Of a stretch of DNA of 64,000 nucleotides, positions 2,030 through 57,834 are shown in pieces. Under the pieces are notes generated by a model. The model had not been told where the DNA came from, ran no database searches, and saw nothing but the letters and a program-made list of their open reading frames with translations. The DNA comes from a bacterium (GTDB taxonomy: Bacteria; Patescibacteriota; CPR2; UBA1875; JAJYID01). The position numbers and the translations under genes were made by a program. How positions within the stretch are numbered: the stretch's first letter is position 1; every line of letters starts with the position of its first letter. The DNA lies in assembly GCA_030647205.1 (NCBI GenBank), contig JAUSJO010000005.1, positions 10,523 through 74,522 of the forward strand, given 5' to 3'.

Positions 2030-5000
2030 ATGCAAGTTTCAGCATACAAGAGCTTAGTCATAAAGACACTTATTCTAGCAGCCATACTCATGCTTGTGAG
2101 CGGCTCTTTTATTTATTTTATTACCCTCAAAAAAGTTGACCAGAAGTATAAAAACCAGCAAAGCAAGGGCGGCAGCGTACCTATCTCAGCCGAGGGACTC
2201 AAAGACGACTTCATTTCCCTTCAGCAGGAAACAGGCAGTCCGCAAGAAGGTGGCCTAAACATTACAGGCAATATCCAAACGCAAGGTTCTGTACAAGGTT
2301 CATCTGTGAGTGCCGACAGTTTGAATATCGGGAGTCTCTCGGGGACTCTAAAAGCTAACCAGGGAGTAGTCTCCGGAGGAGCCACAACCTCAGATGTGCC
2401 GGAAGGTGACAACCTTTACTATACAGATGAAAGAGCTAGGCAGGCCCAGGGTAGTAGTGCTAAAAATACGGATGATATTACAGAGGGTACAAACAAATAC
2501 TATACAGATGAAAGAGCAAGAAGCTCTATCTCCGGCAGCTCATCAATCAATTACAATTCCACAACCGGTGCTGCTTCTCTCTCAAACAGCGGAGTTACCT
2601 CAGGGACTTATGGTGACAGCACTCATGTCGGACAATTCACAGTAGATGCGCAGGGAAGAGTGACATCAGCAGCAACGGTACTCATTACCGGAGCCGCACC
2701 AACCGGAGCAGCAGGCGGAGATCTCACCGGCAACTATCCAAATCCAACCATCAGCAACTCTTGGGGTGGTACAACAGGGATAAATACACTGGGAACTATC
2801 ACTACCGGAACATGGAACGGCACAGCTATCCAAGACACATACATAGCAACATCAGCCAACTGGAACACGGCTTACTCTGAAAGAAATCAGTGGGACGGCG
2901 GAGCAACAGGACTGGTTGCCGCAACCGGTAGAACTTCCCTTGGTCTTGGATCTTTAGCTACACTGAGCTCTGTTAATAACGGCAACTGGTCAGGAACTGC
3001 TCTTGCAGTTGCAAACGGCGGAACCGGAGCAACTGATGCGGCAGGGGCTAGGACAAATCTGGGGCTAGGCAGTGTCGAGAATACAGCTCTTTCGACTTGG
3101 GCGGGTTCATCGAATATTACGACCCTTGGGACAATAGGGACGGGTATCTGGAATGGTGCAGCCATTCAAGATGCAAATATCGCCTCATCTGCAAACTGGA
3201 ATACGGCCTACTCGGAAAGAAATCAGTGGGATGGAGGTTCGACAGGGCTAACCGCGGTAACCGGTAGAACATCGCTTGGTCTTGGCGATATTGCCACTCA
3301 GAGCTCTTCCGCAGTTTCCATTAGTGGTGGAGCGATCACGGGGACAACAACATTCAACGCCGGGGCAGTAACCTCTTCTGGAGTCGTGCAAGGAACAGCG
3401 GTTATCTCGCCGAGTGTTTATGGGTCGTCATCGGCTTCGGGGAATTTGTCTATCGAAAGTACCTCAAACGCAACCAAGGGTAATATTGCTATTGCTAGCA
3501 ATGGCGGCAATGTTGGTGTAGGTACAGCTACTCCGGATGAAAGGCTAACCATTGCCGGCAATGTAAAACAAGTTGCTTCGGGTAATCCAACTGTTCAGTC
3601 TACTTATACTTCAGGGACGGCCACAGCAGGCGGGGTTTATGTCTCCGGAAACTATGCTTATCTGGCCGCTATGGGCGATGGACTTCTTGTTTCAAATATT
3701 TCAAACCCTTCATCTCCTGTGACGGTCGGGTCATATAACACGGATGGTTACGCCATTGACGTTTATGTCTCCGGCAAGTACGCCTATGTCGGCGAAACAA
3801 ACGGTTTGAAGATTATTGATATTTCAAATCCCGCGGTTCCCACACAAGTTGGTTCGTATGCCACGGCTGGATTGATAGAAAGCGTATATGTCGTAGGCAA
3901 GTACGCCTACCTTGCGAGTAATACCGCCGAAAACAAACTTTTGATAGTTGATATCTCAAACCCGGCCAGCCCGACCTTGAAGGGTTCGTACACTGCGACA
4001 GAAGGACCTGTTGGAGTATATGTAAATGGTAACTACGCTTATATCGCAGAAGGTGACATGAGTGCTCCTTATACATCGTCGCACTTAACGGTTGTAAATA
4101 TTTCAAACCCGGCCAGCCCAACCTTAGCCAGCACAGTTGTTATAAGCGGTGAAGCCGAAGAGGTATACCAGTCCGGAGGATACGTTTATGTTAGTATTTG
4201 GGATAAAGATAGTAACTTAGCATCTCGTATCGAAGTATATGATGTTTCTAATCCATCTGTTGCGCCGGTACTAAAAGACTCACAAACCGTCAGTGGTGAG
4301 GCGGCGTGGGGACTATATGTATCCGGTAAATATGCGTATGTGGCGGTGACAGACGTGACCGATCCCTGGACAGAGTCAAAACTTGAAGTGTTTGACATTT
4401 CCAATCCATCGGCTATTAGCACTATAGGCTCTGTGAGTGTTCTCGGGTCGCCTTGGAACCTGAAGGTATCCGGTAAATACGCATATGTAACAGCCCTTAA
4501 CGCTGCCGGAAGCCCAATGCAGATTATAAATATCAATGGGATGGAAGCATCTGCTCTCAGCGTTGGCAATGTACAAAGTGGTAACATTATAGTGACGGAA
4601 AATATGGATATCGGTAATACGCTCTCTGTCAAAAGCGGCATAAGTGTAGGCAGCCAAGGCATAAACAGTGCGGGAAGGCTGAGTGTAGGCAATGAGGCTT
4701 ATTTTCAGGGTAATGTAGGTATCGGTGATACAACACCTCTTTCGCTCTTTACAGTAGGTAGTGGGGATCTATTCCAGGTTAACTCGTCCGGACAAATCGC
4801 TGCGGTAGCCGGATATACTCAAGGTTCAGGTAACTTCGCCATCTCAGGCGCAGGAACATTTACTACCGGAACAGGGGCGATTTCACTACAGGGGGCAACA
4901 ACGATTGCGGCAGGGAAGAACCTTGCTTTAGCTTCTGGTACAGGTACCTTTGCTCAAACATACACAGGCACTGCGACTGCAGGAACTATTACAGCGAACT

Positions 5001-8000
5001 CACTTACGTCCGGAAAGATTCTATCTCTTACATCTTCCTCTACCGCGGCATCAACGGGAAACACAGGACTGAATATTGCTATATCGGGTGCCAATGGAAC
5101 TGCCGGTATTACGCGTTATGGCATGCAGTCTGCGGTGACGGCCACAGGTGCAACCAGTACCAATGTTGGCGGATATTTCTCAGCTTCCGGGGCAACGAAT
5201 AACTATGGGTTGGTTGTTAGCTCTGGTAGTGTTGGTATCGGCACAGTAACTCCGAACGAAAAACTAACTGTCACTGGCGGGACGATACTACAAACTATTT
5301 CGACTGACCCTGTAGTTGTAGGATCGTTAACTGATGCTGACATGAGTGGTGTTATGGGAGTCAAGGTGGTAGACAGATATGCTTATGCGGCATCGTATAG
5401 TTCAGGTACTCTTACTATTTTAGATGTTTCAAATCCAGCAAGTCCGGTGAAAAAGGGAGTTGCCAGAGGGGTCACGGCTGCAGTTGGTGTACAAGTCGTC
5501 GGTCAGTATGCATATGTAACTGAATATGCCACAGAAGGGGGGATGACGGTGGTTGACGTCTCTAACCCAACTTTACCAGTTGTAGTTGGCAAAGTTGGCG
5601 GTCTAGACCATGCATTGCATATATCTGTGTCAGGTAAATATGCATATGTTACTGCCGCAGGAAATAGCGCGACAGGGAACAAGATGGTTGTTATTGATAT
5701 CTCCAATCCTGAACTGCCAATCATAGTGGGAACCCTTAAAGACGATACGCACTTATACAAGGCCGACGGTCTATGGGTGGCTGGTAAATATGCTTATGTG
5801 GAGTCCCATTATGCTGTGGGAGAGTTAGCTCCGGACCCTGATGCTGACTATCTGAACGTTGTTGATATCTCAGATCCAACCAACCCAACACTAGTGTCGT
5901 CTTACTTAAGGGCTGAGTTTTCTGGAGCCGATGAGATGTATATTTCCGGCAGGTACGCATATCTTTGCGGGCTTTATTCGGACACCTTCTCCGTAGTTGA
6001 TATTTCCAATCCTAAGAGCTTATCAATAGTAGGTTCGGTACAGGATCACACGCGTCTTGACTTCATGCCTTGGACTTATGTGTCCGGTAAATATGCTTAT
6101 GTAGGGGGTAACAGTGGTGTGACAGTGCTGGATATTTCAAATCCAACAGCACCGGTCATAGTCGGAAATAACAACACAGTAACCGGCATTGACGAAGTAT
6201 ATGTATCGGGTAGATACATATATGCCGCAGCAAGTACAAATCTTTCCATATTAGATATTTTTGGTACGGATCTGCCATCTGCAAATATTGGTAATCTCAC
6301 TGTTACGGCCGCTCAGGTTGACGTGAATATAGTCGTCGGAAATGACGCATATGTAAAAAATGGTTTAAATGTAGGTGAAGGTGGGATTTTCACAAATGGC
6401 GAAATAAGCGCAGGCGGAGAAGTTACCACGCCCGGAGTTGTCATCGCAGAAACGATACCTAAGTTGCCTACAACATTCGCTGATTCTGTCGGTTTTGGAA
6501 GTACTACACCCACCTCAGTATTTGTTCAGGGAGAATTTGCATACGTTGTGAACCAGACCTATGATCTTCTTCTCATATATAATAAAGCAGATCTGGGTAC
6601 AGTTCTAGGATTTGTTGCCGTAGGCACCAACGCAAGCGCCAACCCAACATCAGTTTTTGTTCAGGGCAGTTATGCGTATGTAGCAAACAATAATAATGGA
6701 ATCGAGGTATTTGATGTTTCTAACCCGGCCGTACCAGCGAAGCGGGGGAATGCGGGGTTTGCAAGCTATAGCCCCACCTCAGTCTATGTCCAGGGCAACT
6801 ATGCATACTGGGTAAACCAAGCCTATGATTATATTTTGATCCATGATATATCAAACCCGAACTCACTTGTATTTAAAGGGTCGGTGCTCTCCGGCACTGA
6901 TCCCACCTCAGTCTTTGTTCAGGGTAACTATGCTTACATTACTAACAGCGCTGACGGCCTTAAGGTAGTCGATATCTCAAGCCCTACCGCCCCAGTTGAT
7001 GTCGGGAATGTAGGTCTGGCTGGAGCGCTGCCAAAGTCTGTTTATGTCCAAGGCAAGTATGCTTACATGGTCGGTCAAACAGCTGATACGCTCATAGTTT
7101 ATGATGTGTCTAACCCTGTCTCACCTACAAATATTGGCAGTATCGCCGCGGGCACTAATCCTACATCCGTTTTCGTCCAAGGCAGCTATGCCTATGTGAC
7201 CGATAGCGGTAAGCTCAAGGTGTATGACGTTTCTACGCCCAGTGCTCCTGCGAGCTTAGGGGACGTGTCCTCTGGCACAAATCCCACATCAGTTTTTGTT
7301 CAGGGGCAATACGCCTATGTGACCAATACTACTGACCAGCTATACAAGTTTGATATGGGTTCATATAACCAAGGTATTAGCACGGGCGGTCTAGATGTTA
7401 ATAAGGCACATGTTCATGGCAATGTGGATATAGTAACTGATACCGATGCCACGGCTACAGCAGTAAGAACCGGTACTACTGTCACGAGCGTGACTATAAC
7501 AAGTGGCGGTTCCGGGTATACTAAGGTGCCAAACGTATTCTTCAAAGGGGGTGCGGGTAGCGGAGCAGCTGCTCATGCTGTACTTACAAATGGTGTGGTT
7601 ACAAGCATTGTGGTTGATGCTGTTGGGTCTGGGTACACTTCTACCCCGACGGTTTACATAGAAGGGGGGAAAGGATTTTCATATAATGGCGATCTCTTGG
7701 TTGATGTCGCAAAAGTGGCTGGGAATGTAAAGATCATTGTTCCTTTGGCGGATACGACAGATGTTACTCCAAATGTTCATAATACCGCAATAGGATCGGG
7801 AGCATTTAGAGATAATACAACTGGTTACTATAATACAGCCGTGGGTACTGACGCTGGCATGATGTGGACGACTGGTTACTATAATACTGCTCTTGGTGCT
7901 TGCGCCGGAGACCATATACAGGGCGGCTATTCAAACACTGCTGTTGGCATGGGGGCGCTGTCGGGACCGATTGGTGGTACAAGTGCAAGTATGAACTCAG

Positions 8001-9403
8001 CATTTGGAGATAATGCTCTCACATCTAACACTGGCAATGGGAACACAGCTCTTGGCTACCAAGCAGGGAAAGCAAATACATCGGGTGCATATAATACTTT
8101 TATTGGCTATAATGCCGGATATACCGGCACAGCTGCAACGCTTCAGAAGGCGGCGGCCATTGGTTATAATGCTCAAGTCACTCAAGACAGCAGCATAGTC
8201 TTTGGTGGCACTGGTGTAGATGCGGTCAAAGTCGGCATAGGGTTAACAGCACCAACAGAGGTTCTGGATGTAGTAGGCAACATCAACATAAGTTCAGGTA
8301 GTAGCGTTAAAACTAATGGCCAGATATTTTTAAGAAATACAGGGGCCGCAGATTCCCCCGGATATAGCGATTATTCCAATATATTGCTTGGTGTTAATAG
8401 CGGCGCCAATCTTGCTCCAGCCGCAGGATGGTTAGGGGTTGCAAATACTGCAATCGGCAGAAATACGCTAAACGGCGTTACAACGGGTAGTAACAACGTA
8501 GCCATTGGGCTGGGAACAATGAATGGGGCGGGTACTACCGCTACTAGTAATACGGCTCTTGGTATGGGCGCGGGGGCTACTCTTCAGGGCAATCAGAATG
8601 TATTTATAGGTGATAACTCAGGTGGAGCTATTACGGGTTCGGGTAATGTAATGATTGGATATCAGGCCGGCAAACAAGCGGTTCAAACTGCTGTTTCAAA
8701 CAAGCTTTACATAGATAACTCAAATGACTCCACGCCGCTTATTTATGGTGATTTTAGTACTGATGCAATCACTATAAATGGAACCTTGGCATCAGGAACG
8801 GTGAATGGTCAGACCGTATCATCCAGCGCGAACTTTACGGGGACTGTCACGGTGGCTACATCTGTTTCAACTCCAACCATTACAACTTCGGGCGCCGGTA
8901 TATCATTTAACTCAAAGAATTTAACAAATGTGGGAACTATCGCTTCAAGTACTATCAATGGCCAAACTATATCTACATCGGCAAACTTTACCGGCACGCT
9001 CGCAGTTTCAAGTACTTCTTTGTTTAGTGCCAACATAACCGTAAATGGTCACATTATTACGGGTAATGCCAGTGGTACTACTACGGTAGCTGTCGGTGCT
9101 GCTGCAGGAACGGGTGGAAGTGTTGGGGCGAGCATTGTGGGTAATGATACTGCCGGATATGTGACAATTACCACGGGGAACGCTTTAACCACTACCACGG
9201 GCACTATGGCAACCGTTACTTTTGCAAATGCTTATGGGGCTACGCCAAAGGCAGTGATTCTGACGCCGCAAGGCAATACAAACGGATCAAGTGTTAACTA
9301 TTATGTAGGTAGTGCCGGAACTACAACATTTACCATAAATACAGGAACAGTCCCTACGGGTGGAGGTAACACCTATATCTACAACTATATGATTATGCAG
9401 TAG
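2030..9403 (+). CDS. Giant surface protein (2457 aa) with an N-terminal signal-anchor, tail-fibre-like G/T/N-rich repeats, three blocks of LVIVD beta-propeller repeats and C-terminal Hep_Hag-like NTAxG repeats
   Basis: GGGGGG RBS 8 nt upstream. A TM helix lies at residues 12-32. The units GKYAYV...VDISNPASP and SVFVQGxYAYV...DVSNP recur more than 20 times and match the LVIVD consensus. Segments [20 protein letters not shown] and NTAVGxxAG are present. No internal stops over 7.4 kb. Confidence 0.8.
2800..3300 (+). repeat. Intragenic tandem duplication (~165 nt units, ~75% nt identity) encoding [46 protein letters not shown]
   Basis: Read directly: about 2806-2968 versus about 3130-3292. Confidence 0.6.
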
Positions 9404-9579
9404 CATGCTTTATACGGCTATCGATCTGGCACTCTAATTTATAGAATAAATAATTTATTCATCGCCAAAATTTAAATAATTCGGTATTTTTGCCGGATTA
9501 TTTATTTTCTAAATAAACCTTTAAGCCCTTGACTCGTTGGTAGAAAAACCATTATTATTGTGCTGTAATTAAAATAGAT

Positions 9580-12500
9580 ATGATCCTTGGGGTTATGAAG
9601 GCCATAAAAATAAAAAAGCTATTGATAAAATGTTTTCTTCTAGTTGCAGTACTTGTGATTGGTGGGTATTTTTCAGTGTTCCAGCTTGCCATCCAAAAGG
9701 CTGAAGAAGTTCGACATAAAAATCAAACCGAACTCACCAATACAAAACAGAAGTTAGACCAGGATATTCAGGCAGTAAAGAAAGATTTATCTTCATCTAT
9801 AACAAACAGAGGATATACAGAGATGAGCGCAGATCAGTTTACTTCGAAAGAAATAACATCTGGGCAGATTACTTCGGGTCAACTGACAGCATCAAGCGGC
9901 GTAAACATACAGGGTAGTCTTGCGGCAGATAGTCCGGTTCAGTCATCCGCTACTCTGGCGGCAAGTGTAGACCCAGGGACCATTTCCATATATCATGACG
10001 GATCGAACGGACACGTGGAAACTAATAGGGGGAGTATATTTCTTACGCCCGCAAACGGCTATCTAAGATCGGATGGCAATCTTTACCCTAAAACAAACAA
10101 CACTTACAACCTTGGTGTTTCTGGCTGGATGTGGAAAGACATTTACCTCCAAGGGAGTCTCCGGGATAGCGGCAACTCAGCGGCTGGGGTCACTGTTGCA
10201 GATTTGAGAAATGCGAAAAACCATATGTATACAAACGGATCAAGTCACTCTTGGCTTGGCCAAAGCTTAAGGATAGAAAACTCGCCGACGTTTAGGGGAC
10301 TTACATTAAACGGAAACTTATCTCTCGGGACAAATACCTTAACCACTACAAACGCTACGGTTGTAGCCAATCTGAATGCAGACACTTTGGACGGTTATCA
10401 TGCTGCCGATCTTCTAAGCGGAGTTTTGCCTCCCGGGGGAACAACATCTGACTATTTGAGAGGAGACAATACGTGGCAAGCTTTGAATTCATCGGCCGTT
10501 CAGGGTCTTGGGGCACTTGCAACCATTGATACGATTAACAACGGACAATGGTCAGGGACAGCTCTCTCGGTTGCAAATGGTGGTACGGGCGCTACTCTTG
10601 CAGTAGACGCGAGGACGAACCTGGGGCTTGGTACTTTGGCAGTTGAAGATGCCGCAACTTGGGCAGGATCAACGAGCATTGCGACAGTCGGAACCATTAC
10701 GACAGGCACTTGGAACGCAGGAGCCCTAACTTCCTCGGGAGCTATACAGGGCACATCATTGAATATTTTTGGGAACGCTGATGCAACGCATGTTATTGTT
10801 AGGGCGAATGCCACACAAAGTAATACTAATCCGCTTATCAGCATCCAGGCAAGCGATGGTGCAGAACTATTTAGAATTCATTCAGATGATATAGACAATA
10901 TATTCATAGGACGTGACGCAGGTATGAACAATGTTGCAAATCCGAGTACTAGCGCAGGTAACTACAATACTTTTCTGGGATATACTGCAGGAAGGAATAA
11001 TACATCAGGACATTACAATACTTACCTAGGAAACAGATCAGGTGCCCTCACAACCTCGGGAGATCACAATACCTTTGTTGGGATGCAGTCAGGGTATAAC
11101 AACACAACTGGGCAATATAATAATTTTTTTGGCATAACGGCCGGCCAAGACTTAACTGATGGAGATCATAATTTGGCATTAGGTTCTTACGCTCAGTTTG
11201 GTTTGGTAACTGGTGAAAGTAACATGTCTATTGGTAACTATGCAGGCTATAACAGACTTCTGGCTAGAGCGAACATACTACAAGGATACGGCGCTGGCGG
11301 TTCAGGAAAAGCCGGTGCCTATAATACGGCTGTTGGAGATAATACTTTATATAACGATTATACGGGGATGGGTAATGCGTCATTTGGTGCTTATTCTTTA
11401 TATAATAATAAAGGGACAAGTGATAGAAGCATAACCGGTTTTAGCGCCAGTGGTGGAAATACAAAAGTTACGACACTTACTAGTCACGGTCTTCAGGTCA
11501 GTGACTCGGTATTTATAGCATTTAATGATACTACTCAAACTGAAGTTACAAAATCAGGGAAGTACACAGTTTTAACTGTTCCCGATGCCACAAGCTTCAC
11601 AATTAGCAAAACTTACGATTCTGCAAATGATAAGAAGGGATGGTGGGAACGAGGAGCAACCTTCTCTGATAATGGAAGCGGTAAAGTAAGGGTAATTTCA
11701 AACAATCATGGTGTTCCTAACGGAGGCATGGTAGCTCTTGGTTACAGCGGAACCGGAGTTACGGGAGGTTATTATAAGGGCTTGCAGGTGGCAACTCTGG
11801 TTGATGCTAATACATTTGATTTGACAGATCTAAGCTATACAGCAAGCGTTACTTCCGGTTGGTTTTTTTATGAAGATGACGCTATAAATAACACGGCAAT
11901 CGGAACTTTGGCGGGATATGCAAATACTACCGGTATAAATAATACATTTCTTGGATATAAATCAGGAATGACGTCTACTGCGACTCTCCAGAATGCCGCA
12001 GCGATTGGCTACAATGCTCAAGTCACTCAGAATAGCTCCATTGTTCTTGGTGGTACAGGGGCTGACGCTGTTAATATCGGGATAGGGACTACGGCTCCTC
12101 TCGAAAAGATACATGTTGACCATGGTAATATGCGACTTGATCAAGAAGCGGCTCCCGGAGCACTAACAGCAACCGTAACTGCGACAGCGGGCAATCCAAA
12201 TGGTACTTACCAATATGCCGTTACTTTTGTGACCGCCGATGGCGAAACTGAGGCTGGTACCGCTAGTACGGCTGTGTCCCCAGCTCTTAAACAGGTTAGT
12301 TTGACAAATATCCCTCTTGGTTCAAGTAAAGTAACTGCTAGAAAGATTTATAGGAGTTCAGAGGGGGAACATTGGGCGGGATATACAAATAAAGTGAGAA
12401 ATGCCAAACTAGTCACTACTCTTGCCAATAATACAGCGACGACATATACGGATAATGTTGCCGATGGATCGCTTGGCGCCGCCGCCCCATACAATAATAC

Positions 12501-14346
12501 TACCGGAGGAAGTATAATGAACGGCACTGTGACTGTTATGGAAGCAGACCAAGGAGTTACAAGATTAGGCTATAATGCTGGTAGCGTAAATAAGGGTGCG
12601 AGCAATACATTTATAGGGATCAACTCTGGCCAGAACAATACTACGGCTGACTACATAACTGCTGTCGGAATAAATTCTTTACAGTCAAATACTTCAGGTT
12701 GGTACAATGTTGCTCTTGGAGCACATACTCTCTCATCTAATGTTGATGGCTATAGTAATGTTGCTATAGGGACAAACACCTTACATAGTAATGTTTCGGG
12801 AGACAACAATACAGCCGTTGGCACAGATGTTCAAAGAGATACTACTGGCAACAACAACACCTCGATCGGTTCACACTCTTTGCATTTTACTACTACAGGG
12901 AGCAACAATGCTGCTGTTGGAGATTTTTCACTTTATTCAAATCTTACGGGGAGCCGCAACTCTACCAGCGGATCAATGGCTCTCTACTCAAATTCGACTG
13001 GGAGCAATAATTCTGCTATTGGATATTTGTCCCTCTTTAGTAATACTATCGGCGGCTTCAATGTCGCCAACGGCATCGACTCCCTTGGTAGTACAAACCC
13101 GACAGCCAGTGGAACTATAACGGCATTTGCCAACTCTCCTACCGAACCGGGAGTAAAGACCCAGGTGACATCAGCCGGACACGGCAGGTCAAACGGCGCT
13201 CTGGTTACTATTTATGATCCTACCGCTGCCTTTAACTCCTCGGTATATAAAGGTATCTGGGTAATTTCCAATGTCGCAGCAAATACCTTTGATATTACTA
13301 AGGTTTATTCCGCAGAGGCGGCAGGCGGCAGTAAGTGGGTAGTAGGAGGCGGGAATACGGCTCTCGGAGGTTCATCTGGTTATGCTAATACTACCGGTAC
13401 AGGCAATACTTTCCTTGGCTATAACGCAGGGGCTACCTCAACTGCAACCCTCCAAAATGCTACAGCCATCGGATATAACGCTCAGGTTACGGCAAGTAAC
13501 TCTATTGTGCTTGGTGGTACAGGCAGTACAGACTCGGTAAATGTTGGTATTGGAACAACGGCGCCGACGACTATGCTGGATGTCAGACAGTCGGTCAATG
13601 GCACAAATATAGTAAATATCCAGCGTGTCACAGATACCTCACCAACCGGTCATCTTCTAGACTTCAAGACTGCTGCTGGGGGAACATTAACTTACTTTAA
13701 TAGTTACGGAAACTATGTAGGGGTAGCGTTGCAAGAATTGTATACAACAGCTTCACCGACTTACTTTGAGGCTAACTCATGGGTCATACAAGGAAGTGGG
13801 ACAGGTCCTACTAGGATTGGTTCAAGTAATAATAAAAACATAGAGCTTTACCCGCAGGGGACCGGCAGTCTTTTAGTCAAAGGAACGATGGCCGCGCTTG
13901 GGCCAAACAGTTCTGCATATACTGCGTCCAAGTCAACAACGACGATAACTGCAACCGTTGGAACATTTTCGGCTGCCGATGTTGGGAAATACTTTATCTG
14001 GGGTGACTCCGGAGGTACAACAGATAGAATAACAGGATACACAGACGCCACCCACGTTACCGTTGCAGATAGTGGCACCATGACCTCGCAGACAGGATAT
14101 GTAAGAGTAACAAACTTATACGTTACTTTGGCAACTGGCAATATTGGTATAGGTACAAATAATCCAACCGAGAAACTGGAAGTGAATGGTGGTATGCGTT
14201 TAAATACTACAACGGCTAAACCAACCTGTGATGCTACACATCGCGGCACTTTCTGGGTGAACCAAGGCGCAGCAGGAGTTAAGGACGATGTAGAGGTTTG
14301 TGCCAAAGATGCTGCTGACGCCTATGCGTGGAGAACTATTTACTAA
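9580..14346 (+). CDS. Giant surface protein paralog (1588 aa) with N-terminal signal-anchor, tail-fibre-like repeats and Hep_Hag-like repeats; no LVIVD blocks
   Basis: It shares near-identical segments with the 2030..9403 protein: [40 protein letters not shown] (twice), [31 protein letters not shown] and GIGTxxPTEKLxV. The start may instead be the ATG at 9595 (TGGGGT 5 nt upstream). Confidence 0.8.
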   Translation: MILGVMKAIKIKKLLIKCFLLVAVLVIGGYFSVFQLAIQKAEEVRHKNQTELTNTKQKLDQDIQAVKKDLSSSITNRGYTEMSADQFTSKEITSGQITSGQLTASSGVNIQGSLAADSPVQSSATLAASVDPGTISIYHDGSNGHVETNRGSIFLTPANGYLRSDGNLYPKTNNTYNLGVSGWMWKDIYLQGSLRDSGNSAAGVTVADLRNAKNHMYTNGSSHSWLGQSLRIENSPTFRGLTLNGNLSLGTNTLTTTNATVVANLNADTLDGYHAADLLSGVLPPGGTTSDYLRGDNTWQALNSSAVQGLGALATIDTINNGQWSGTALSVANGGTGATLAVDARTNLGLGTLAVEDAATWAGSTSIATVGTITTGTWNAGALTSSGAIQGTSLNIFGNADATHVIVRANATQSNTNPLISIQASDGAELFRIHSDDIDNIFIGRDAGMNNVANPSTSAGNYNTFLGYTAGRNNTSGHYNTYLGNRSGALTTSGDHNTFVGMQSGYNNTTGQYNNFFGITAGQDLTDGDHNLALGSYAQFGLVTGESNMSIGNYAGYNRLLARANILQGYGAGGSGKAGAYNTAVGDNTLYNDYTGMGNASFGAYSLYNNKGTSDRSITGFSASGGNTKVTTLTSHGLQVSDSVFIAFNDTTQTEVTKSGKYTVLTVPDATSFTISKTYDSANDKKGWWERGATFSDNGSGKVRVISNNHGVPNGGMVALGYSGTGVTGGYYKGLQVATLVDANTFDLTDLSYTASVTSGWFFYEDDAINNTAIGTLAGYANTTGINNTFLGYKSGMTSTATLQNAAAIGYNAQVTQNSSIVLGGTGADAVNIGIGTTAPLEKIHVDHGNMRLDQEAAPGALTATVTATAGNPNGTYQYAVTFVTADGETEAGTASTAVSPALKQVSLTNIPLGSSKVTARKIYRSSEGEHWAGYTNKVRNAKLVTTLANNTATTYTDNVADGSLGAAAPYNNTTGGSIMNGTVTVMEADQGVTRLGYNAGSVNKGASNTFIGINSGQNNTTADYITAVGINSLQSNTSGWYNVALGAHTLSSNVDGYSNVAIGTNTLHSNVSGDNNTAVGTDVQRDTTGNNNTSIGSHSLHFTTTGSNNAAVGDFSLYSNLTGSRNSTSGSMALYSNSTGSNNSAIGYLSLFSNTIGGFNVANGIDSLGSTNPTASGTITAFANSPTEPGVKTQVTSAGHGRSNGALVTIYDPTAAFNSSVYKGIWVISNVAANTFDITKVYSAEAAGGSKWVVGGGNTALGGSSGYANTTGTGNTFLGYNAGATSTATLQNATAIGYNAQVTASNSIVLGGTGSTDSVNVGIGTTAPTTMLDVRQSVNGTNIVNIQRVTDTSPTGHLLDFKTAAGGTLTYFNSYGNYVGVALQELYTTASPTYFEANSWVIQGSGTGPTRIGSSNNKNIELYPQGTGSLLVKGTMAALGPNSSAYTASKSTTTITATVGTFSAADVGKYFIWGDSGGTTDRITGYTDATHVTVADSGTMTSQTGYVRVTNLYVTLATGNIGIGTNNPTEKLEVNGGMRLNTTTAKPTCDATHRGTFWVNQGAAGVKDDVEVCAKDAADAYAWRTIY

Positions 14347-14405
14347 CAGCTCCTTTTTGACCTCTCATGGTTTTTGGGTAAATAGGGTTTACTGTTTTTT
14401 TCTTT

Positions 14406-14801
14406 TTGTTCTATAATAAACATATGCATTACTTTAGTTTGGTGCCAACATTTTTCATGTGGTGGTACGGGAGGGGACTAAAAGATCTCTTTAGTTTCTT
14501 GTCGGCTCTTTTTTCATATACAAGCAACATGTTCTCGGTGACCACCCTTTTAAAGACTTTGTTTTCTCCATGGAAGAAGCTAGTCGGTGAGAGGGGAAGA
14601 GGGATAGAGGGGCTCAAGCTATGGCTGGTGGACAATCTTGTTTCTCGGGCAGTTGGTTTCATAGTGCGGCTGTTTATGATAATCTTTTTTCTCATTGTCT
14701 TTATATTATTTGCGTTTTTTGCTGTTTTGGCAGTTATATTCTGGATAGGTATGCCGGTGTTCATTCTTGCAGCTTTTATTTATATATTTATAGGATACTA
14801 A
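14406..14801 (+). CDS. Small membrane protein of unknown function
   Basis: 131-aa ORF with two or three hydrophobic helices and a TATAAT about 10 nt upstream. Its stop is 4 nt before the AAA+ gene start, suggesting co-transcription. The start codon is uncertain. Confidence 0.4.
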   Translation: MFYNKHMHYFSLVPTFFMWWYGRGLKDLFSFLSALFSYTSNMFSVTTLLKTLFSPWKKLVGERGRGIEGLKLWLVDNLVSRAVGFIVRLFMIIFFLIVFILFAFFAVLAVIFWIGMPVFILAAFIYIFIGY

Positions 14802-14805
14802 TAAG

Positions 14806-17325
14806 ATGATAAATCCGGCACAGATAAAATTTACAAAAAGGGCTAGCAGAGTAAATGCGGCAAAGCTAGCTAATATGCTAGGTAAGCATTTTTTCATACT
14901 TGTGCTCGATATCTTTGCTTTTTTAGGAATTTTTGCTGTTCTTTTTCTCCTGGCAGACGGATTTGTGTTGCATGTAGGAGCGCTACTTACCTTACCGTCA
15001 AAGATATTTCTGTTTATTGGGCTCAAATCTTTTGTAATCTCTCTGTTTGTTAAAAGTTATTTTAGGGAGATTGAAGATGGTATTAAGATTCCTGATAATC
15101 CTCCCGCGTATGAAGTCTTTGACATTTGCGACCTTGAGACTATAAGGATCTTGGATTCAATCAATATGACAACTCCTGATGTTATAGACTTTTATAAAAA
15201 GCTTCTCGGGACAAGAAGGGTTGGTTTTATTGCCGATGAGATGGGCATGAATGACGATTTTAACAAGAAGATGTTCTCAGGCTTGCAAAGGGAACAGAAC
15301 ATCTTGCCCCAAGTATTTGCTTATGCCATTGAAAATGCAATAAATGAAAAATCGAAGTTTATTACGGCAGCTGATGTATTTTATGGATTTATAAAGATGA
15401 GTGCTACTTTAGACCAAGCACTTATGTCCATCGAGATAAGTGAGGATGATCTCTCAAATATAATTTTTTGGGCAAACAGCCTTTTCCAGAAAATATACTA
15501 TCCTAAAACGCTGCTTGATAAGTTTCATGCAAAAAATGCCGGTCTGGCTGAGGGTTGGGCATCAGGCTACACCCTTTTCCTTGATAGGTTCAGCACAGAT
15601 ATAACAAACCCGGCTTATTTTGGTAGTTTCTCATCTTTGGGGAGGGAAAAGATACTCGCTCATATGGAGAACACCCTTTCAAAAGAGGCTAAGAACAACT
15701 GTATTTTGACCGGTGAAGCGGGTGCCGGGAAGACTTCTTTGGTTTATGGCTTTGCTGAGAAAATATATTGGGGAGACACAATTCCGGAACTTTCTCACAG
15801 TAGAGTTGTATCTCTTGATGCATCTACACTTCTATCCGGGTCGTCTGATCCGGGCGAAATACACGAAAGACTTCTTGGCGTTTTAAATGATGCGATTCAT
15901 GCGGGCAATGTGATTCTTTTTATAGATAATATTCACGATCTCTTTGCGGGCGGAGGGGAGAAAGTAGGAACCATTGATGCTTCAGAGATCATTGCTCCAT
16001 ATCTGCAAAGCAGTAGTCTTAGAATCATCGGGATTTCGGATAATGCTCATTATCAGACATATATAGTTCCCCATACTCAGATATCCGGCAATATGGAGAG
16101 AATAGAAGTGCCACCGACAGATGAGAACCAAACTGTAAGGATACTTGAGGATCTAAGTCTTTATTTCTCGGGCAAGTTTGGTCTCAGGATTACTTATAAT
16201 GCTCTGAAAGAAGTGTATAAACTTGCCGAAAGATTTGTTGCCGAAAAAGGATTCCCCGCACGCGCTGTCGATATGTTGGAGAATGTTTGTACTTCAGCAA
16301 AGAACTCAGGTAGCAAAGTTTTGGACAGGCATGTAATAGATAAGCTAGCCGAGAGTACACTAAATGTTCCCATCCAGGAAGCCGAGGGTGATGAAAGAGA
16401 AAAGCTTTTGAAGCTGGAAGAGAAGCTTCACTCCAGGGTTATCGGGCAGGATGAGGCGGTAAAGGCTATATCACAAGCTCTGCAACGTGCCAGGACTCAG
16501 GTGACGGACACAAAAAGGCCGATCGGGACGTTTCTTTTCTTGGGTCCGACCGGTGTAGGAAAAACAGAACTTACAAAGGCGCTTGCCTGGGCATATTTTG
16601 GCAATGAAGAAAACATGGTCAGGATGGATATGAACGAGTTCCAAGACGCAGCATCGGTGGATAGGTTTATCGGTCGGCAAATGCCTGGGAGCGAGAAGCT
16701 TGAAGGCGGTGACTTTGTTAAAAAGGTCCGCGAGAAACCGTTTTCAGTTATTCTTCTTGATGAGCTTGAAAAAGCTCATCCGGATATCTTAAATTTATTC
16801 TTGCAAATCTTAGATGAAGGATACTTCACTGATGGTATGGGCTCTAGAGTATCTTTCCAAAACTCTATCATCATTGCCACCTCAAATGCCGGAGCAAACC
16901 TAATCCGTGAGGGGGTTGCCGGCGGCAAGACCTCAGACAGTTTAAAGGGGGAACTGCTGAACTATCTTCAGGCAGAGGGAATTTATAAGCCGGAGTTTTT
17001 GAACAGATTTGACGGGGCAATTGTCTTTAAGCCATTAACAAAGATAGAACTTTTGAAGATTGCCGGGCTGATGTTTGAAAAGACTTGTGCAAGTTTAAGG
17101 CAAAAAGGCTATGTTATTCAGATAGACTCGTCCGCGCTAGAGAAACTGGTAGAGTGGGGGTATCAGCCTGAGTTTGGAGCAAGGCCTATGCGCAGGGTGT
17201 TTCAGGATAAGTTGGAAAGCATGTTGGCGAAGAAGATTTTGGAGGGTACTGTCCAAAAGGGCGCACCTTTCACGGTTAAGCTGACGGATTTGGAGGATAC
17301 AACTCAAGCAGTTGGAAATATGTAA
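14806..17325 (+). CDS. Membrane-anchored ClpA/ClpB-family double AAA+ ATPase (TM hairpin, Clp_N-like repeats, D1 and D2)
   Basis: D1 Walker A is GEAGAGKTS. D1 Walker B reads ILFIDNIHDL, with DN in place of DE. D2 Walker A is LFLGPTGVGKTELTKALA, D2 Walker B is ILLDELEKAH, and the sensor is GARPMRR. TM helices lie at residues about 28-80. There is no long M-domain between D1 and D2 and no IGF/IGL loop. Confidence 0.8.
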   Translation: MINPAQIKFTKRASRVNAAKLANMLGKHFFILVLDIFAFLGIFAVLFLLADGFVLHVGALLTLPSKIFLFIGLKSFVISLFVKSYFREIEDGIKIPDNPPAYEVFDICDLETIRILDSINMTTPDVIDFYKKLLGTRRVGFIADEMGMNDDFNKKMFSGLQREQNILPQVFAYAIENAINEKSKFITAADVFYGFIKMSATLDQALMSIEISEDDLSNIIFWANSLFQKIYYPKTLLDKFHAKNAGLAEGWASGYTLFLDRFSTDITNPAYFGSFSSLGREKILAHMENTLSKEAKNNCILTGEAGAGKTSLVYGFAEKIYWGDTIPELSHSRVVSLDASTLLSGSSDPGEIHERLLGVLNDAIHAGNVILFIDNIHDLFAGGGEKVGTIDASEIIAPYLQSSSLRIIGISDNAHYQTYIVPHTQISGNMERIEVPPTDENQTVRILEDLSLYFSGKFGLRITYNALKEVYKLAERFVAEKGFPARAVDMLENVCTSAKNSGSKVLDRHVIDKLAESTLNVPIQEAEGDEREKLLKLEEKLHSRVIGQDEAVKAISQALQRARTQVTDTKRPIGTFLFLGPTGVGKTELTKALAWAYFGNEENMVRMDMNEFQDAASVDRFIGRQMPGSEKLEGGDFVKKVREKPFSVILLDELEKAHPDILNLFLQILDEGYFTDGMGSRVSFQNSIIIATSNAGANLIREGVAGGKTSDSLKGELLNYLQAEGIYKPEFLNRFDGAIVFKPLTKIELLKIAGLMFEKTCASLRQKGYVIQIDSSALEKLVEWGYQPEFGARPMRRVFQDKLESMLAKKILEGTVQKGAPFTVKLTDLEDTTQAVGNM

Positions 17326-19820: not shown

Positions 19821-20582
19821 ATGAGATGTCCAAAATGCGGACAAGAGATGATACATATCAACAATCAGTATATTTGTACTGCTTGTGGTATTGTTGCTAA
19901 TGAATTTTCTCCCAAGCAGCAGGTTTTGGGGGCAATCAAGAAAAAAATGGCTGCCCAGAATACTTCCAAACAAGAGGAGTATGTATCTCCTGTTGCGATA
20001 GCTACAGAACAACCGCAAGCACAACAATATATCCCGCCCAACCCGGCCTCAAAAATCGACCAGCAAGCTTTGGCTGGGATTACTCTAGATCAGATTATTA
20101 AAGAGTTGGCTGCAGGTGCTGTAAAGTTAAACAAGGGTACAACAGATAAAAATGAAGAAGATTATCTGGACTCAGGATCTGAGGGTGAAAAGATTATCCC
20201 TCGGATTGGAACGGAAGGTAAGGAAGTGGCGAGTCAAGATAGTGAAGTACCTCAAAAACAAGTTCAGGCTCCACCCGCACCAGTGCAGGTAGCTCAACCG
20301 GTTCAGTCTGAAGCTATACAGGTAGAAAGCGTTGCACCGGCTAATATGACTTTTCCACCCTCGTCAACGTCTCAAGATACTATGGGGAGTCTCCAGGTTA
20401 GTCAGGTTTTAGAAGGCGATCAGGAGGAGATCTACCCTTCGCATCAGGTAAATCCGATCCTTATAAAAACTTTGATATATGTATTTGTGACATTGGTCCT
20501 GTTTGTGATAGGGTATCTTATATACACAAACCCTGGTGCACGAGGGTTTATAGAGAATACTCTGAAAAATTTAGGGAAATAA
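19821..20582 (+). CDS. Zinc-ribbon protein with a Q/P/A-rich low-complexity linker and a C-terminal TM anchor
   Basis: MRCPKCGQEM...CTACG carries two CxxC pairs. The C-terminal helix reads LIYVFVTLVLFVIGYLIY. Confidence 0.5.
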   Translation: MRCPKCGQEMIHINNQYICTACGIVANEFSPKQQVLGAIKKKMAAQNTSKQEEYVSPVAIATEQPQAQQYIPPNPASKIDQQALAGITLDQIIKELAAGAVKLNKGTTDKNEEDYLDSGSEGEKIIPRIGTEGKEVASQDSEVPQKQVQAPPAPVQVAQPVQSEAIQVESVAPANMTFPPSSTSQDTMGSLQVSQVLEGDQEEIYPSHQVNPILIKTLIYVFVTLVLFVIGYLIYTNPGARGFIENTLKNLGK

Positions 20583-21846: not shown

Positions 21847-21926
21847 TGCTTTTTTGTGAGATTTGATATATTATCTAGGAAACAGTTATGTTTCAATAGG
21901 AAACAAATAGAAAGGAGGTGAAAAAT

Positions 21927-22277
21927 ATGTTAGCACTACTAGCACAAGCAACTGATGACTTTACAAACACAACGATTGACACAACAAATAGCGCGGCCGC
22001 AACCGGAGTTATTGCCGGCTTGGGGATTTTGTGGCTTGTATTTATGCTTATTTGGCTTGTCACCACTGTATTCTCAATATGGATGTTCATTGATGCTTTG
22101 ATAAGAAAGGATGAAGATTTTGCGACCGGCAGTAAGGTCATGTGGGCTCTTCTGATTTTCTTCTTCAACTTTATCCCTGCCATAATCTATTTCTTTATGG
22201 TAAAGAAAAAGTCAGGACAGAACGGCGGAACAAGTACCCCAACACAAAGTACTGGTGGAACGGACGCTCCCGCTTAA
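21927..22277 (+). CDS. PLDc_N-like small membrane protein, tandem paralog 1
   Basis: AGGAGGTGA RBS, with the ATG 5 nt downstream; the ORF track's GTG at 21918 lies inside the RBS. The motif region reads SIWMFIDALIRKDEDF...KVMWALLIFFFNFIPAIIYFFMVKKKSG. Confidence 0.6.
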   Translation: MLALLAQATDDFTNTTIDTTNSAAATGVIAGLGILWLVFMLIWLVTTVFSIWMFIDALIRKDEDFATGSKVMWALLIFFFNFIPAIIYFFMVKKKSGQNGGTSTPTQSTGGTDAPA

Positions 22278-22392
22278 TTAGATTTGAATTTAAAAGGAAT
22301 CTTCGGGCACGATCCTGAAGGTTCTTTTTATTTTGTTTTAAACCTAGCTCCTTTTTGTTAAAATAAAAGCATAGAGGAAGGAGGTGAGCAAT

Positions 22393-22710
22393 ATGTTAGC
22401 ACTAGCACAAACTGCAAATACAGCAGATACCATGAGCGCAGAACAAGGAATGGCGCTTTTTGCCGGTTTTGGTATTTTGATAGTAGTTATGTTGTTGATA
22501 GCTTTAGTTACATTTGTATTTAGTATTTGGATGATAGTTGATGCGTTCAACAGAAAAGAAGAGGATTTTGCATCGTTAGGCAAAACAGCATGGATTATTA
22601 TTTTGGGTGCAGGAATTTTCCTTGGTTATGGTCTTATTGCCTCAGTAATTTATTTTTTAGTTATAAAGAGGAAATCAGGGAAAACCACCGAGACAAGTTC
22701 TCCAAAGTAG
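22393..22710 (+). CDS. PLDc_N-like small membrane protein, tandem paralog 2
   Basis: Same RBS, with ATGTTAGCACTAG as in paralog 1. The motif region reads SIWMIVDAFNRKEEDF...KTAWIIILGAGIFLGYGLIASVIYFLVIKRKSGK. A terminator-like hairpin plus T-run follows each copy. Confidence 0.6.
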   Translation: MLALAQTANTADTMSAEQGMALFAGFGILIVVMLLIALVTFVFSIWMIVDAFNRKEEDFASLGKTAWIIILGAGIFLGYGLIASVIYFLVIKRKSGKTTETSSPK

Positions 22711-55458: not shown

Positions 55459-55986
55459 CTAACTGAAAATAGCTTTCACTATTTCCTTTGGTTTTTCCAT
55501 GGCTCCGATCCCTCTGTCGCCGCAGGCAAGGATTGCATGTCGTGGCATGATAACCTTCAGATTTGGCAGAATCTTTAAGGATTCCAGATTTCTCTGAAGG
55601 ATTGGGTTTTCCCACATTTTGGTATTCATCGCCGGAGCGATAAAAATGGGAGTTTCTGCTGGGATAGCTGCCAAAACGGTAGTGGCAAGATCATCAGCGA
55701 TGCCGTTTGCCATTTTGCCGATGAAGTTGTAGGTTGCCGGAGCAACCAGTACCAGGTCGGCCCATTTCGCAAGTTCGATATGTTCAATGTCAGATTTTTC
55801 TGACCCAAACATTTCTGTCTGCGTGGGATGGCCGGAAAGGGCAGAGAATGTGAGCGGGGCGACGAACTGAGTTGCCCCGCGGGTCATTACGACCCGCACA
55901 TCATGTCCCTTTGCTTTTATCCTCCCGACAACTTCACACGATTTATATACGGCGATTCCGCCCGTTACGACAAGTAGCACATTCAT
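55459..55986 (-). CDS. coaC: Phosphopantothenoylcysteine decarboxylase (flavoprotein), stand-alone
   Basis: N-terminus MNVLLVVTGGIAVYK. Later segment PAMN. Confidence 0.8.
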   Translation of the reverse strand: MNVLLVVTGGIAVYKSCEVVGRIKAKGHDVRVVMTRGATQFVAPLTFSALSGHPTQTEMFGSEKSDIEHIELAKWADLVLVAPATYNFIGKMANGIADDLATTVLAAIPAETPIFIAPAMNTKMWENPILQRNLESLKILPNLKVIMPRHAILACGDRGIGAMEKPKEIVKAIFS

Positions 55987-56725
55987 TTTCCTCCCTCCTT
56001 TTTAACTCCCAGTCGATTACATTAAATACTCTCGATGCCAGCAGTTTGCGCTTATCCACGATCTTCATTTCATCAGATCCCAGGATAATCGCCGGCGGGA
56101 TGCCGTTTTGTGATCCATGCAGGTCATTTGCGACAATCAGGTCGGCGCCTGAAGCAACCCGGCTCTTTTCTGCGATGTCAATCAGCTCTTCGTAGGTTCT
56201 ATCCACCTCGAGCTTGAACTTTACAAGGAAGACATCGGGATCCCATTTCTTTACAAAATCAACGATTTTTTCTGTCCGTTCCATAGTGACGGTCAGCTCG
56301 GGCAGATCTGACTTGATCTTGCCGGGGATATTATCTACTTCTTTGAAAAGCCGCATTCCCGGAGCGAGATTCAGGCCACTGTCTTTTACCTCGACGAGCT
56401 GCTTGACATTATGTCCATAGTCGGAGACTGCGGCGGAGTGGATGACAATGTCATATCTTCCGGAAGAAATCTCCTCTTCCATTGCCTTCTTCAGGCCGTC
56501 AAATGTGGTGTAGGGTCGGGCTGACAGGTTGATAACCCTTCTTGCATAGTTGATTCTCGGGTTATACAGAAGGGTCGTTTCAGCACCCATCTCAGCGAAG
56601 TGCTTTGCCATCTTGATGCCGGTATTGCCGGTGAAAATGTTTGTCATTACTCGCACATCATCTATTTTTGTCCATGTGCTACCCGCAGTGATGAGCACTC
56701 TCTTTTTCGTTATGCTTGCTCTCAT
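55943..56725 (-). CDS. coaB: Phosphopantothenate--cysteine ligase, stand-alone
   Basis: Segments VLITAGST.TKIDDVR and AAVSDY. It overlaps coaC by 44 nt. Confidence 0.75.
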   Translation of the reverse strand: MRASITKKRVLITAGSTWTKIDDVRVMTNIFTGNTGIKMAKHFAEMGAETTLLYNPRINYARRVINLSARPYTTFDGLKKAMEEEISSGRYDIVIHSAAVSDYGHNVKQLVEVKDSGLNLAPGMRLFKEVDNIPGKIKSDLPELTVTMERTEKIVDFVKKWDPDVFLVKFKLEVDRTYEELIDIAEKSRVASGADLIVANDLHGSQNGIPPAIILGSDEMKIVDKRKLLASRVFNVIDWELKRREENECATCRNGRNRRI

Positions 56726-57347
56726 GGCTTCTCCTTTCTTGCATGTTATCGATATGCGTGTTGATTCTCTCGAGAACTTCCGGGGTTATAAATCTCGGCT
56801 TAATCTCGAGTTTTTTGTCGATGTTCGCCGACATTTTGCCTTCAGAGATGACAAAGTTGGGTGATTTCTTATAATTCGTTTTGCCATCCCATGGATACGC
56901 CCGGTTGTCGAGCGGATCATGCGGCACGTCACCTTCCAGTGTTCGGTCTCTTGTAGCATCAGTGGCAATCCATTCTCCATTTAGATACACATATGCGAAT
57001 ATGTGAGTTGTAACCGGAGAGATCTTCTCGTAGAAGTCAGGACTGCTTACGTCAAGGAGGGCACTTTTTCGGATCTTCATGGTGCCATAGGCCGCGGGAA
57101 TTCCCGCGGCTCTAAGAATTGCTATCTGGAGGTTTGCTTTGTTGGTACACATACCATATCGCTTATCTAACGTTTCTGAAGCTTTTACGTTCCAGAAATC
57201 GAAGCGATAGGGAACATAGGAGATGAATTTCCAGACATTGACTGCTGTTTTTGTTTCATCCTTTCCCTCGAGCTCTCTGGCTTTTGCCTTGATCTCAGGG
57301 TTTTGGCAGTCGCAATATCTGGTCTTTTCAAGATATTCCGACAACAT
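56679..57347 (-). CDS. Transglutaminase-like cysteine protease family protein
   Basis: Segment RYGMCTNKANLQIAILRAAGIPA carries the Cys. Segments HIFAYVYLNGEWIATDATRD carry the His and Asp. Confidence 0.65.
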   Translation of the reverse strand: MLSEYLEKTRYCDCQNPEIKAKARELEGKDETKTAVNVWKFISYVPYRFDFWNVKASETLDKRYGMCTNKANLQIAILRAAGIPAAYGTMKIRKSALLDVSSPDFYEKISPVTTHIFAYVYLNGEWIATDATRDRTLEGDVPHDPLDNRAYPWDGKTNYKKSPNFVISEGKMSANIDKKLEIKPRFITPEVLERINTHIDNMQERRSHESKHNEKESAHHCG

Positions 57348-57834
57348 AGTTGTCCTCCTCTCCTTTCAGGTATTCGATTACACTTCTTGGTACATACCTC
57401 TTCAGGTCCAGCCCTTTTTCGAGGAGGAATCTGACGGATGTAGAGCTTACATGTATATGATCCTGTTTTGGCGGGATAAAGATATTTGCGATATTTTCGT
57501 CCAGCGCCTGGTTGTTGAAGTGCAGGAATAGTTCGGTCTCGAAGTCAGTGTTTAACCGTACCCCTCTGATCATAGCTGTTGCTCCGTGCTTTCTTGCTAC
57601 GTTGACCGCCAAATCTTCAGAGGCGACTACTTTGACATTTTTGATCCCATACTCTTTGACTGCAGTTTCGATCATTTTCACCCTTTGCTCAGTTTGGAAC
57701 ATTGGTTGCTTATCGGGATTGACCAGAATCGCAACGCATACTTCCGAAAAGAGTTTGGAAACGGTTTCAATAACGTCCATGTGTCCCAAGGTGATGGGAT
57801 CAAATGTCCCCGGGTATAGAGCTGTGGTATTCAT
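57328..57834 (-). CDS. coaD: Phosphopantetheine adenylyltransferase
   Basis: Segments ALYPGTFDPITLGHMDVIE and ISSTSVR. Confidence 0.9.
   Translation of the reverse strand: MNTTALYPGTFDPITLGHMDVIETVSKLFSEVCVAILVNPDKQPMFQTEQRVKMIETAVKEYGIKNVKVVASEDLAVNVARKHGATAMIRGVRLNTDFETELFLHFNNQALDENIANIFIPPKQDHIHVSSTSVRFLLEKGLDLKRYVPRSVIEYLKGEEDNYVVGIS

Follow-up and report, generated by a model that had tools for sequence, protein, structure and literature searches.

Why should two giant surface proteins, a small membrane protein and a membrane-anchored ATPase of the Clp family be encoded one after another on the chromosome of a member of the Patescibacteria? This question is raised by a locus on contig JAUSJO010000005.1 (assembly GCA_030647205.1), which we analysed in a window of 64,000 nt (contig positions 10,523-74,522, forward strand; all coordinates below are those of the window). 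The region of interest, 2030-17325, was described in an initial annotation as a candidate surface module, with the hypothesis that the ATPase serves the giant fibres as their own chaperone or unfoldase. An open reading frame (ORF) check found the four ORFs at the coordinates first given, all on the + strand, and the protein features described for them are not due to chance. The nearest homologues of the proteins of the region come from Patescibacteria metagenome bins, and the surroundings consist of + strand housekeeping genes, as is usual for a chromosome of Patescibacteria (candidate phyla radiation, CPR). The explanation that we find best overall, with a probability of roughly 0.6, is that two unrelated things stand side by side here: a set of fast-evolving giants and a housekeeping pair made of the small membrane protein and the AAA+ ATPase.

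The idea of one module depends on whether giants and ATPases with transmembrane (TM) anchors are found together across genomes, and the outcome of this check largely refutes it. Genes for giants are found upstream of the pair solely in the two nearest relatives, whose ATPases are 79% and 69% identical to the one studied here. Even there unrelated genes intervene, namely a phosphoribosyltransferase and a Y1 transposase in one relative and a helix-turn-helix (HTH) protein and a DUF4325 protein in the other (L001 and L004), and the giants of these two loci have only some modules in common with those of the window. Where the ATPase is 54-56% identical (L006 and the contig of P0014), the genes run gap-pgk-tpi-fba-[small]-[ATPase]-ppdk-x-eno; giants are absent and fba directly precedes the pair. 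Altogether, 16 contexts besides those of the two nearest relatives, L006 and the P0014 contig among them, had no protein of more than 1000 aa in the retrieved flanks, which span 6-10 kb or, on three short contigs, less. The most economical interpretation is that one sub-lineage acquired the giants as an insertion between fba and the pair, in an otherwise conserved string of glycolysis genes, and we regard their place beside the ATPase as a local accident of genome history. The Y1 transposase, of the IS200/IS605 type, which stands between the giants and the pair in the closest relative (L001 8888-9508; L002 150-770), is consistent with a rearrangement there.

What does stay together is the small gene and the ATPase gene. 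The small gene adjoined the ATPase gene in 15 of 15 informative loci. A small homologue is found directly upstream of the ATPase in each Patescibacteria locus with upstream DNA, namely in L001, L004, L006, L007, L008, L011, L012, L013, L024, L057, L088 and L089. The reverse test gave 3/3: all three small-protein homologues, which were picked solely for sitting on long contigs, have an ATPase of the family abutting or overlapping downstream. The small protein is even fused to the N-terminus of the ATPase in four cases (L009, 888 aa; L037, 829 aa; P0029; P0242). Beyond the pair itself, no other gene is conserved around it. A contig scan with the alignment of the first AAA+ module (D1), whose pattern AGN[VI]IL[FV][IL]D also fits ClpC of Firmicutes, gave only about 10 Patescibacteria loci among 80, and thus it does not provide a large-scale synteny statistic.

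The genes for the small protein and the ATPase make up a unit of their own, in some cases as a single fused gene, which is conserved across Patescibacteria, and a functional tie between the ATPase and the small membrane protein encoded directly upstream is supported. The marks of the pair are a TM hairpin, a WASGYT-type motif and tyrosine-less pore loops in the ATPase, together with a TLFSPW(K/R) and DNLVSR small gene upstream or fused, and every one of them is present in the window. We hold it very likely that the pair is real and that the giants are independent of it. A search of the literature for TM-anchored Clp/Hsp100 proteins, or for this ATPase family in CPR bacteria, returned no description. 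It is well supported that the ATPase is an apparently undescribed Clp/Hsp100 variant with a dedicated membrane partner, and the view of the initial annotation that the arrangement falls outside known secretion and chaperone systems stands, as no described system matches it.

Two remarks on the neighbourhood of the pair belong here. A Lactamase_B_3 gene is located directly upstream of it in two Saccharimonadia-like loci (L090 5315-5956, L091 5326-5961) and 2 kb upstream of it in an unrelated locus (L007 7047-7673), which may be a second, weaker association. A link to glycolysis, considered since the pair sits between fba and ppdk, was rejected, because the fba-ppdk context is confined to this clade.

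The small membrane partner (14424..14801, + strand, 125 aa) belongs to an unannotated family and is labelled ‘hypothetical protein’ in the sources. Its start is most likely ATG 14424 rather than TTG 14406, because the 99%-identical protein P0271 is 125 aa long and begins with MHYFS at the same Met. N-terminal helices, which the predicted topology places in the cytoplasm, give way to a C-terminal half whose roughly 45 hydrophobic residues could accommodate two TM spans. An exhaustive phmmer search gave 695 representative clusters at E<=1e-3, nearly all of 115-135 aa, with the invariant motifs WWYG.G, FS..L..TLFSPW(K/R), DNLVSR.VGF..R and, in the last hydrophobic segment, W...P. No match was found in Pfam or NCBIfam, even at E<=5 and with five diverse members. 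A promoter-like site, TTTACT-18-TATAAT (14388..14417, + strand), ends 6 nt short of the small gene's ATG. Such a hit is only a pattern match, and promoter-like sites were not enriched over shuffles, which makes such scans weak evidence; still, the site may be the pair's own promoter. Should it be a real promoter, then with TATAAT ending at 14417 and the ATG at 14424 the mRNA of the pair would be leaderless or nearly so.

The gene for the ATPase (14806..17325, + strand, 839 aa) begins 4 nt past the stop of the small gene. The initial annotation had called its product a double AAA+ ATPase of the Clp family with an N-terminal TM hairpin, and Pfam matches, conservation of the TM segments throughout the family and a structural model all agree with this. 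Pfam gives AAA_2 (E 7.5e-45), ClpB_D2-small (E 4.8e-19) and AAA_lid_9 (E 7e-9); a phmmer search of PDB sequences matches Thermus thermophilus ClpB at E 4e-120; and the top Foldseek matches of the model are ClpC and ClpB, with probability 1.0 and E 7e-49. The protein is thus a member of the Clp/Hsp100 superfamily, class 1, with two AAA+ modules. Nevertheless, it scores at only about one third of the NCBIfam equivalog cut-offs for ClpA, ClpB, ClpV, ClpK and ClpG: 476 bits against 1232 for TIGR03346 (ClpB), so that it is not a ClpB/Hsp104, 416 against 993 for TIGR02639 (the ClpA/ClpC test) and 380 against 885 for TIGR03345 (ClpV/TssH).

The architecture of the ATPase begins with the TM hairpin (residues ~28-86, 14887..15063, + strand). 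An AlphaFold2 (AF2) model built with 43 family sequences (predicted local distance difference test score, pLDDT, 82) draws helices 28-55 and 59-91 as a hairpin, then an all-helical N-domain (residues 104-231) and a ClpC/ClpB-like body. As both the N-terminal tail and the stretch after the second helix are basic, the positive-inside rule implies a predicted N-in/C-in topology with both ends of the protein in the cytoplasm. The helical N-domain (residues ~100-232, 15103..15501, + strand), for which AF2 gives eight or nine helices, is probably derived from Clp_N: PF02861 does not match the ATPase of the window, and it is recorded for the distant members P0033, P0035-P0038, P0042 and P0044. After the N-domain and before D1 comes W(A/T)SGYTxxLDxFS, a motif specific to this family. 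D1 itself lies at 15577..16320 and the second module (D2), together with ClpB_D2-small, at 16393..17289, both on the + strand.

The features that set this family apart were compared in a motif alignment of 46 family members, including relatives down to 29% identity, and four canonical ClpB, ClpC-like and ClpV controls. Every full-length family member has N-terminal TM segments and none of the four controls has them. In the pore loops of the window ATPase, SGSSDPGEIH takes the place of AGAKYRGEFE in D1 and GRQMPGSEKLEGG that of GAPPGYVGYEEGG in D2. The pore-loop tyrosine, in D1 KYR or in D2 GYVG, is found in 0/46 members, while the ClpB, ClpC and ClpV controls keep KYR or GYVG; aromatic residues of any kind are likewise missing from both positions in all 46, and the D2 loop is shortened by 4-6 residues in distant members. 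D1 has degenerated in other ways as well. Its Walker B motif reads FIDNIH, with Asn replacing the catalytic Glu, which only about 5 of the 46 members retain, and the Walker A Lys is replaced by Arg in about 20 of them, although Walker A is intact in the window ATPase (GEAGAGKTS). D2, on the other hand, has intact catalytic motifs: Walker A and B, sensor 1, the NRFD arginine finger and the GAR sensor 2 are conserved throughout the family. The M-domain is replaced by a gap of about 120 residues in all family members, and a UVR domain is missing from the ATPase. The ClpP-binding loop [ILVM]-G-[FL] after D2 sensor 1, present as LGF in the ClpC-like control P0048, is absent from the window ATPase and has one chance match among the 46 members. 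The ATPase is therefore not an ordinary ClpC, and the conserved hairpin together with these motifs rules out the possibility that a cytosolic ClpC had been mis-called. One member of the Saccharibacteria subfamily of these ATPases, P0369, sits on a 557-kb contig that bears the NCBI label ‘Nevskiaceae bacterium’. The contig probably belongs to Patescibacteria and was mis-binned or mislabelled; a genuine label would make P0369 a rare case outside Patescibacteria.

How does such a protein compare with known machines? With ClpC, ClpA and ClpB it shares two AAA+ modules, AAA_lid_9, ClpB_D2-small, an N-domain probably derived from Clp_N and the intact D2 motifs, but it differs from them in its TM hairpin and obligate small membrane partner, and in having no pore-loop tyrosines, M-domain, UVR domain or ClpP loop and no Walker B Glu in D1. 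ClpV (TssH) is likewise an Hsp100, specialised for one structural client, and its D1 loop also has no tyrosine (AGASMKGEFE in the control P0120), but it keeps the GYVG of D2, is soluble and is always encoded with type VI secretion system (T6SS) genes; no T6SS genes occur in the window or in the related loci. FtsH and Msp1/ATAD1 are similar in that an AAA+ ring is tethered by N-terminal TM helices and faces the cytoplasm. They belong, however, to the classic AAA clade, with one module and aromatic pore loops and, in FtsH, also a protease domain, and they have no homology to our ATPase beyond the AAA+ fold.

A precedent is Torsin, an ATPase which is related to Clp, associates with membranes, has no aromatic pore loops and relies on membrane cofactors, and whose cellular client is unknown (PMC5425593). 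Torsin with its partners LAP1/LULL1, in the eukaryotic endoplasmic reticulum (ER) and nuclear envelope, thus has the same combination of a membrane-bound Clp-related AAA+ protein, loops devoid of aromatic residues and a membrane partner. The differences are nonetheless substantial: Torsin has one AAA+ module, resides in the ER lumen and receives its arginine finger from the cofactor, whereas the ATPase described here has two modules and its own arginine finger and is predicted to lie on the cytoplasmic side, and its 125-aa partner has no AAA+-like fold and is unrelated to LAP1/LULL1. In the mechanism proposed below, the pair would resemble Torsin and its membrane cofactors more than it resembles ClpB or ClpC. 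We suggest the parallel as a functional analogy only and not as a sign of specific common ancestry.

A hint of the importance of the pair for the cell comes from the cultivated Saccharibacterium Southlakia epibionticum. Its gene SEML1_0700 encodes an ‘AAA family ATPase’ of 860 aa, in which AAA_2 covers 544-706 and ClpB_D2-small 713-792, while Clp_N is absent (PMC10633639, Tables S1, S2), and the upstream gene SEML1_0701, for a hypothetical protein of 127 aa, overlaps its start (PMC10633639). Judged by domain coordinates, length and gene arrangement, SEML1_0700 and SEML1_0701 are probable orthologues of the pair. In transposon sequencing (Tn-seq) the two genes received the same calls (NE, NE, GD), and their reads fell over the passages, from 4124 to 1638 for SEML1_0700 and from 258 to 51 for SEML1_0701 (PMC10633639). 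The probable orthologues thus have a matching mild fitness defect. The same organism also has a canonical ClpC, SEML1_0512, with two Clp_N and UVR, and a ClpP, SEML1_0493 (PMC10633639). SEML1_0512 was considered as the Southlakia orthologue and rejected, because two Clp_N and UVR are the hallmark of a canonical ClpC, while SEML1_0700 fits instead. No protein named Southlakia was among the results of the homologue search made with P0047. If the orthology is correct, cells in co-culture could do without the pair but would profit from it, and the pair would exist alongside the normal Clp system.

What might the pair do? One may envisage a hexamer of the ATPase whose hairpins fix it to the membrane on the cytoplasmic side, with the small protein docking at the region of the hairpin and the N-domain. 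D1 would then be a nucleotide-binding, largely non-hydrolysing assembly ring, and D2 would be the sole motor. Such a machine would probably use ATP to work as a clamp or switch, remodelling or releasing a membrane-associated client in a non-processive manner, since the tyrosines needed for threading are missing in the whole family. Read from sequence motifs in this way, the non-threading remodeller is a tentative proposal. Equally tentative is the wider picture in which the pair, as an undescribed AAA+ machine of the membrane, would go back to the ancestor of Patescibacteria and, as the bacterial version of the Torsin-cofactor principle, would aid epibiotic fitness.

Other explanations of the locus have to be set against this. 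One might suspect, for instance, an ordinary cytosolic ClpC, ClpB or ClpA with a mis-predicted N-terminus beside a spurious small ORF, and it is true that the best PDB matches are ClpB and ClpC. Yet the TM hairpin is kept down to 30% identity, the scores are far below every NCBIfam equivalog cut-off, the ATPase lacks the pore-loop tyrosines, the M-domain, the UVR domain and the ClpP loop, the supposedly spurious ORF is represented by about 700 homologous clusters, shows invariant motifs and occurs in fusions, and a canonical ClpC exists in addition in a Saccharibacterium; we consider this idea practically untenable. Hardly more credible is the proposal that the ATPase and the small protein are a dedicated chaperone or unfoldase for the assembly or turnover of the giant fibres. 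All the genes are on the same strand and close by in the window, the two nearest relatives again have giants upstream of the pair, and the N-terminal membrane anchors of the giants would be within reach of a membrane-tethered ATPase. Against these points stand the pair without a giant in 16 other contexts, the unrelated genes, a transposase among them, which intervene in L001 and L004, the promoter-like site before the small gene, and the contrast between mosaic, fast-evolving giants and a conserved pair. Furthermore, the ATPase is predicted to be cytoplasmic while fibres fold outside the cell, where both membrane proteins of the pair expose almost nothing, and its threading loops are missing. 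Neither the single module nor the fibre chaperone of the initial annotation is thus supported.

A more serious competitor, although we find it unlikely, is a membrane-protein extractor or quality-control unfoldase. According to this explanation the non-aromatic loops still translocate polypeptides, the small protein is an adaptor or substrate gate, and damaged or mis-inserted membrane proteins are pulled from the bilayer, as by FtsH or Msp1 but with no protease. The hairpin tether, a D2 ring that its motifs predict to be full and active, a retained N-domain probably derived from Clp_N, conservation in tiny genomes and the mild fitness defect of the probable orthologues would all suit such a role. 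On the other hand, processive unfolding by Clp/Hsp100 proteins requires pore-loop tyrosines (PMC5425593), and this family has no aromatic residue at those positions in any of 46 members, a D2 loop shortened by 4-6 residues in the distant ones and no ClpP loop. We prefer a conserved pair, independent of the giants and possibly acting as a non-threading remodeller, but several points weigh against this preference. Its mechanism rests on missing motifs, and a non-aromatic loop could still grip substrates. The ATPase, unlike Torsin, has an arginine finger of its own and does not need the partner to complete its active site. AF2 drew the C-terminal half of the small protein as one long helix and not as a hairpin, which leaves its topology uncertain, and the family membership of SEML1_0700/0701 comes from architecture and arrangement rather than from sequence. 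Finally, giants occur within 10 kb again in the two closest relatives, and a lineage-specific functional link is conceivable.

A tethered Clp/Hsp100 protein with a degenerate D1 and with both threading loops lost contradicts the textbook view of Clp/Hsp100. The genomes of Patescibacteria measure about 1 Mb, yet this 2.9-kb pair is retained; provided that the orthology holds, a cultivated Saccharibacterium, at least, has it alongside a canonical ClpC and a ClpP. The pair could be a tractable bacterial model for non-threading Clp-like ATPases, of which Torsin, mechanistically unsettled, is the best-known example; the motif loss combined with membrane pairing should surprise Clp specialists, and Saccharibacteria are now genetically tractable. 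The annotation can also be corrected, for hundreds of ATPases of this family go under the name ‘ClpC’, with a partner annotated as ‘hypothetical protein’.

The giants are, in comparison, ordinary for this type of organism, as variable adhesin-type fibres are to be expected of an epibiont. Giant 1 (2030..9403, + strand, 2457 aa) and giant 2 (9580..14346, + strand, 1588 aa) each have a single hydrophobic segment at the N-terminus, a signal-anchor, which bears out the membrane anchoring proposed initially. The propellers assigned to giant 1 were recovered as well: it has 16 LVIVD repeats (Pfam PF08309, E 2e-126, 411 bits) and passes the choice-of-anchor-B model TIGR04312 with 104.8 bits against a cut-off of 100. 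A motif count gave 19 G.YAY propeller blades in three LVIVD blocks, three RTxLGLG segments, three GIGTxxPxxKLxV and ten YadA-head-like NTAxG repeats. Giant 2 has one tail-fibre-like segment, 13 NTAxG, three GIGTxxPxxKLxV and no LVIVD. Phage-tail-fibre-type segments are indeed present in both: in a PDB sequence search residues 326-382 of giant 1 match the tail fibre of phage SU10 (7z47_D, E 2e-7), and giant 2, which had no match in PDB, matches the PHROG tail-spike family 4636 (E 5e-35) and other tail-spike and virion-protein families down to E 5e-24. The claim of Hep_Hag-like repeats holds as a resemblance (NTAxG) and not as a domain assignment, since the YadA_head match, obtained for giant 2 only, is weak (E 0.0023, 18.7 bits) and below the cut-off of 25. 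Pfam found no YadA-anchor domain in the giants, which do not qualify as trimeric autotransporter adhesins; an outer-membrane anchor is not expected in a patescibacterium. Paralogy, too, had been claimed, and it proved true of modules: the two giants have in common three stretches of about 80 aa at ~65% identity and about 30% identity over the NTAxG repeat regions, so by their sequences they are paralogous module by module and not end to end.

Between the giant genes a terminator-like hairpin with a 14-bp stem and a T tail (9473-9504) is followed by a promoter-like site (9529-9558), both on the + strand and both found as pattern matches, which suggests that the giants may be separate transcription units. 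They resemble phage fibres and spikes through the segments just named, and LVIVD/choice-of-anchor-B surface proteins through the propellers of giant 1 and its choice-of-anchor-B domain. In contrast to both, their genes are chromosomal, lie among housekeeping genes and encode an N-terminal anchor. There are no phage genes near them, the neighbours being genes of glycolysis, and the order of their domains differs even from that in the giants of the nearest relatives. The giants are lineage-specific mosaic fibres of the surface, probably adhesins of an epibiotic patescibacterium. Their GC content of 0.46-0.49, compared with about 0.40, was considered as a sign of horizontal transfer and found uninformative, because a composition rich in Gly, Thr, Ser and Ala accounts for it.

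It remains to describe the rest of the window, in which an Rfam scan gave zero matches. Neighbouring genes encode tpiA, fba, a phosphoenolpyruvate (PEP)-utilising enzyme, enolase, apgM, pfkB and an ADP-forming acyl-CoA synthetase, and the window also carries pyruvate:ferredoxin oxidoreductase, UvrD, tRNA synthetases and a CoA-biosynthesis block. Between tpiA and fba there is an ORF for a strongly hydrophobic product of 111 aa (619-954), which may be lineage-specific or spurious, because tpi and fba directly adjoin in L006 and in the contig of P0014. A 253-aa protein without a Pfam match (19821-20582) has a zinc-ribbon-like CxxC...CxxC start, a low-complexity middle and a C-terminal TM segment; in L001, L004, L006 and the P0014 contig the interval from ppdk to enolase likewise holds an unannotated gene of similar size, for 226-352 aa. 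Between enolase and apgM lie two similar small membrane proteins in tandem (21918-22277, 119 aa; 22384-22710, 108 aa), both with the motif FSIWM..DA..RK.EDF, and their single equivalent in L001 is a weak match to DUF2516. The sole minus-strand block of the window, at 55459-58420, where GC and AT skew are locally inverted, encodes Flavoprotein/CoaC and DFP/CoaB as overlapping separate ORFs, a CoaD-like protein, CoaE and a transglutaminase-core protein.

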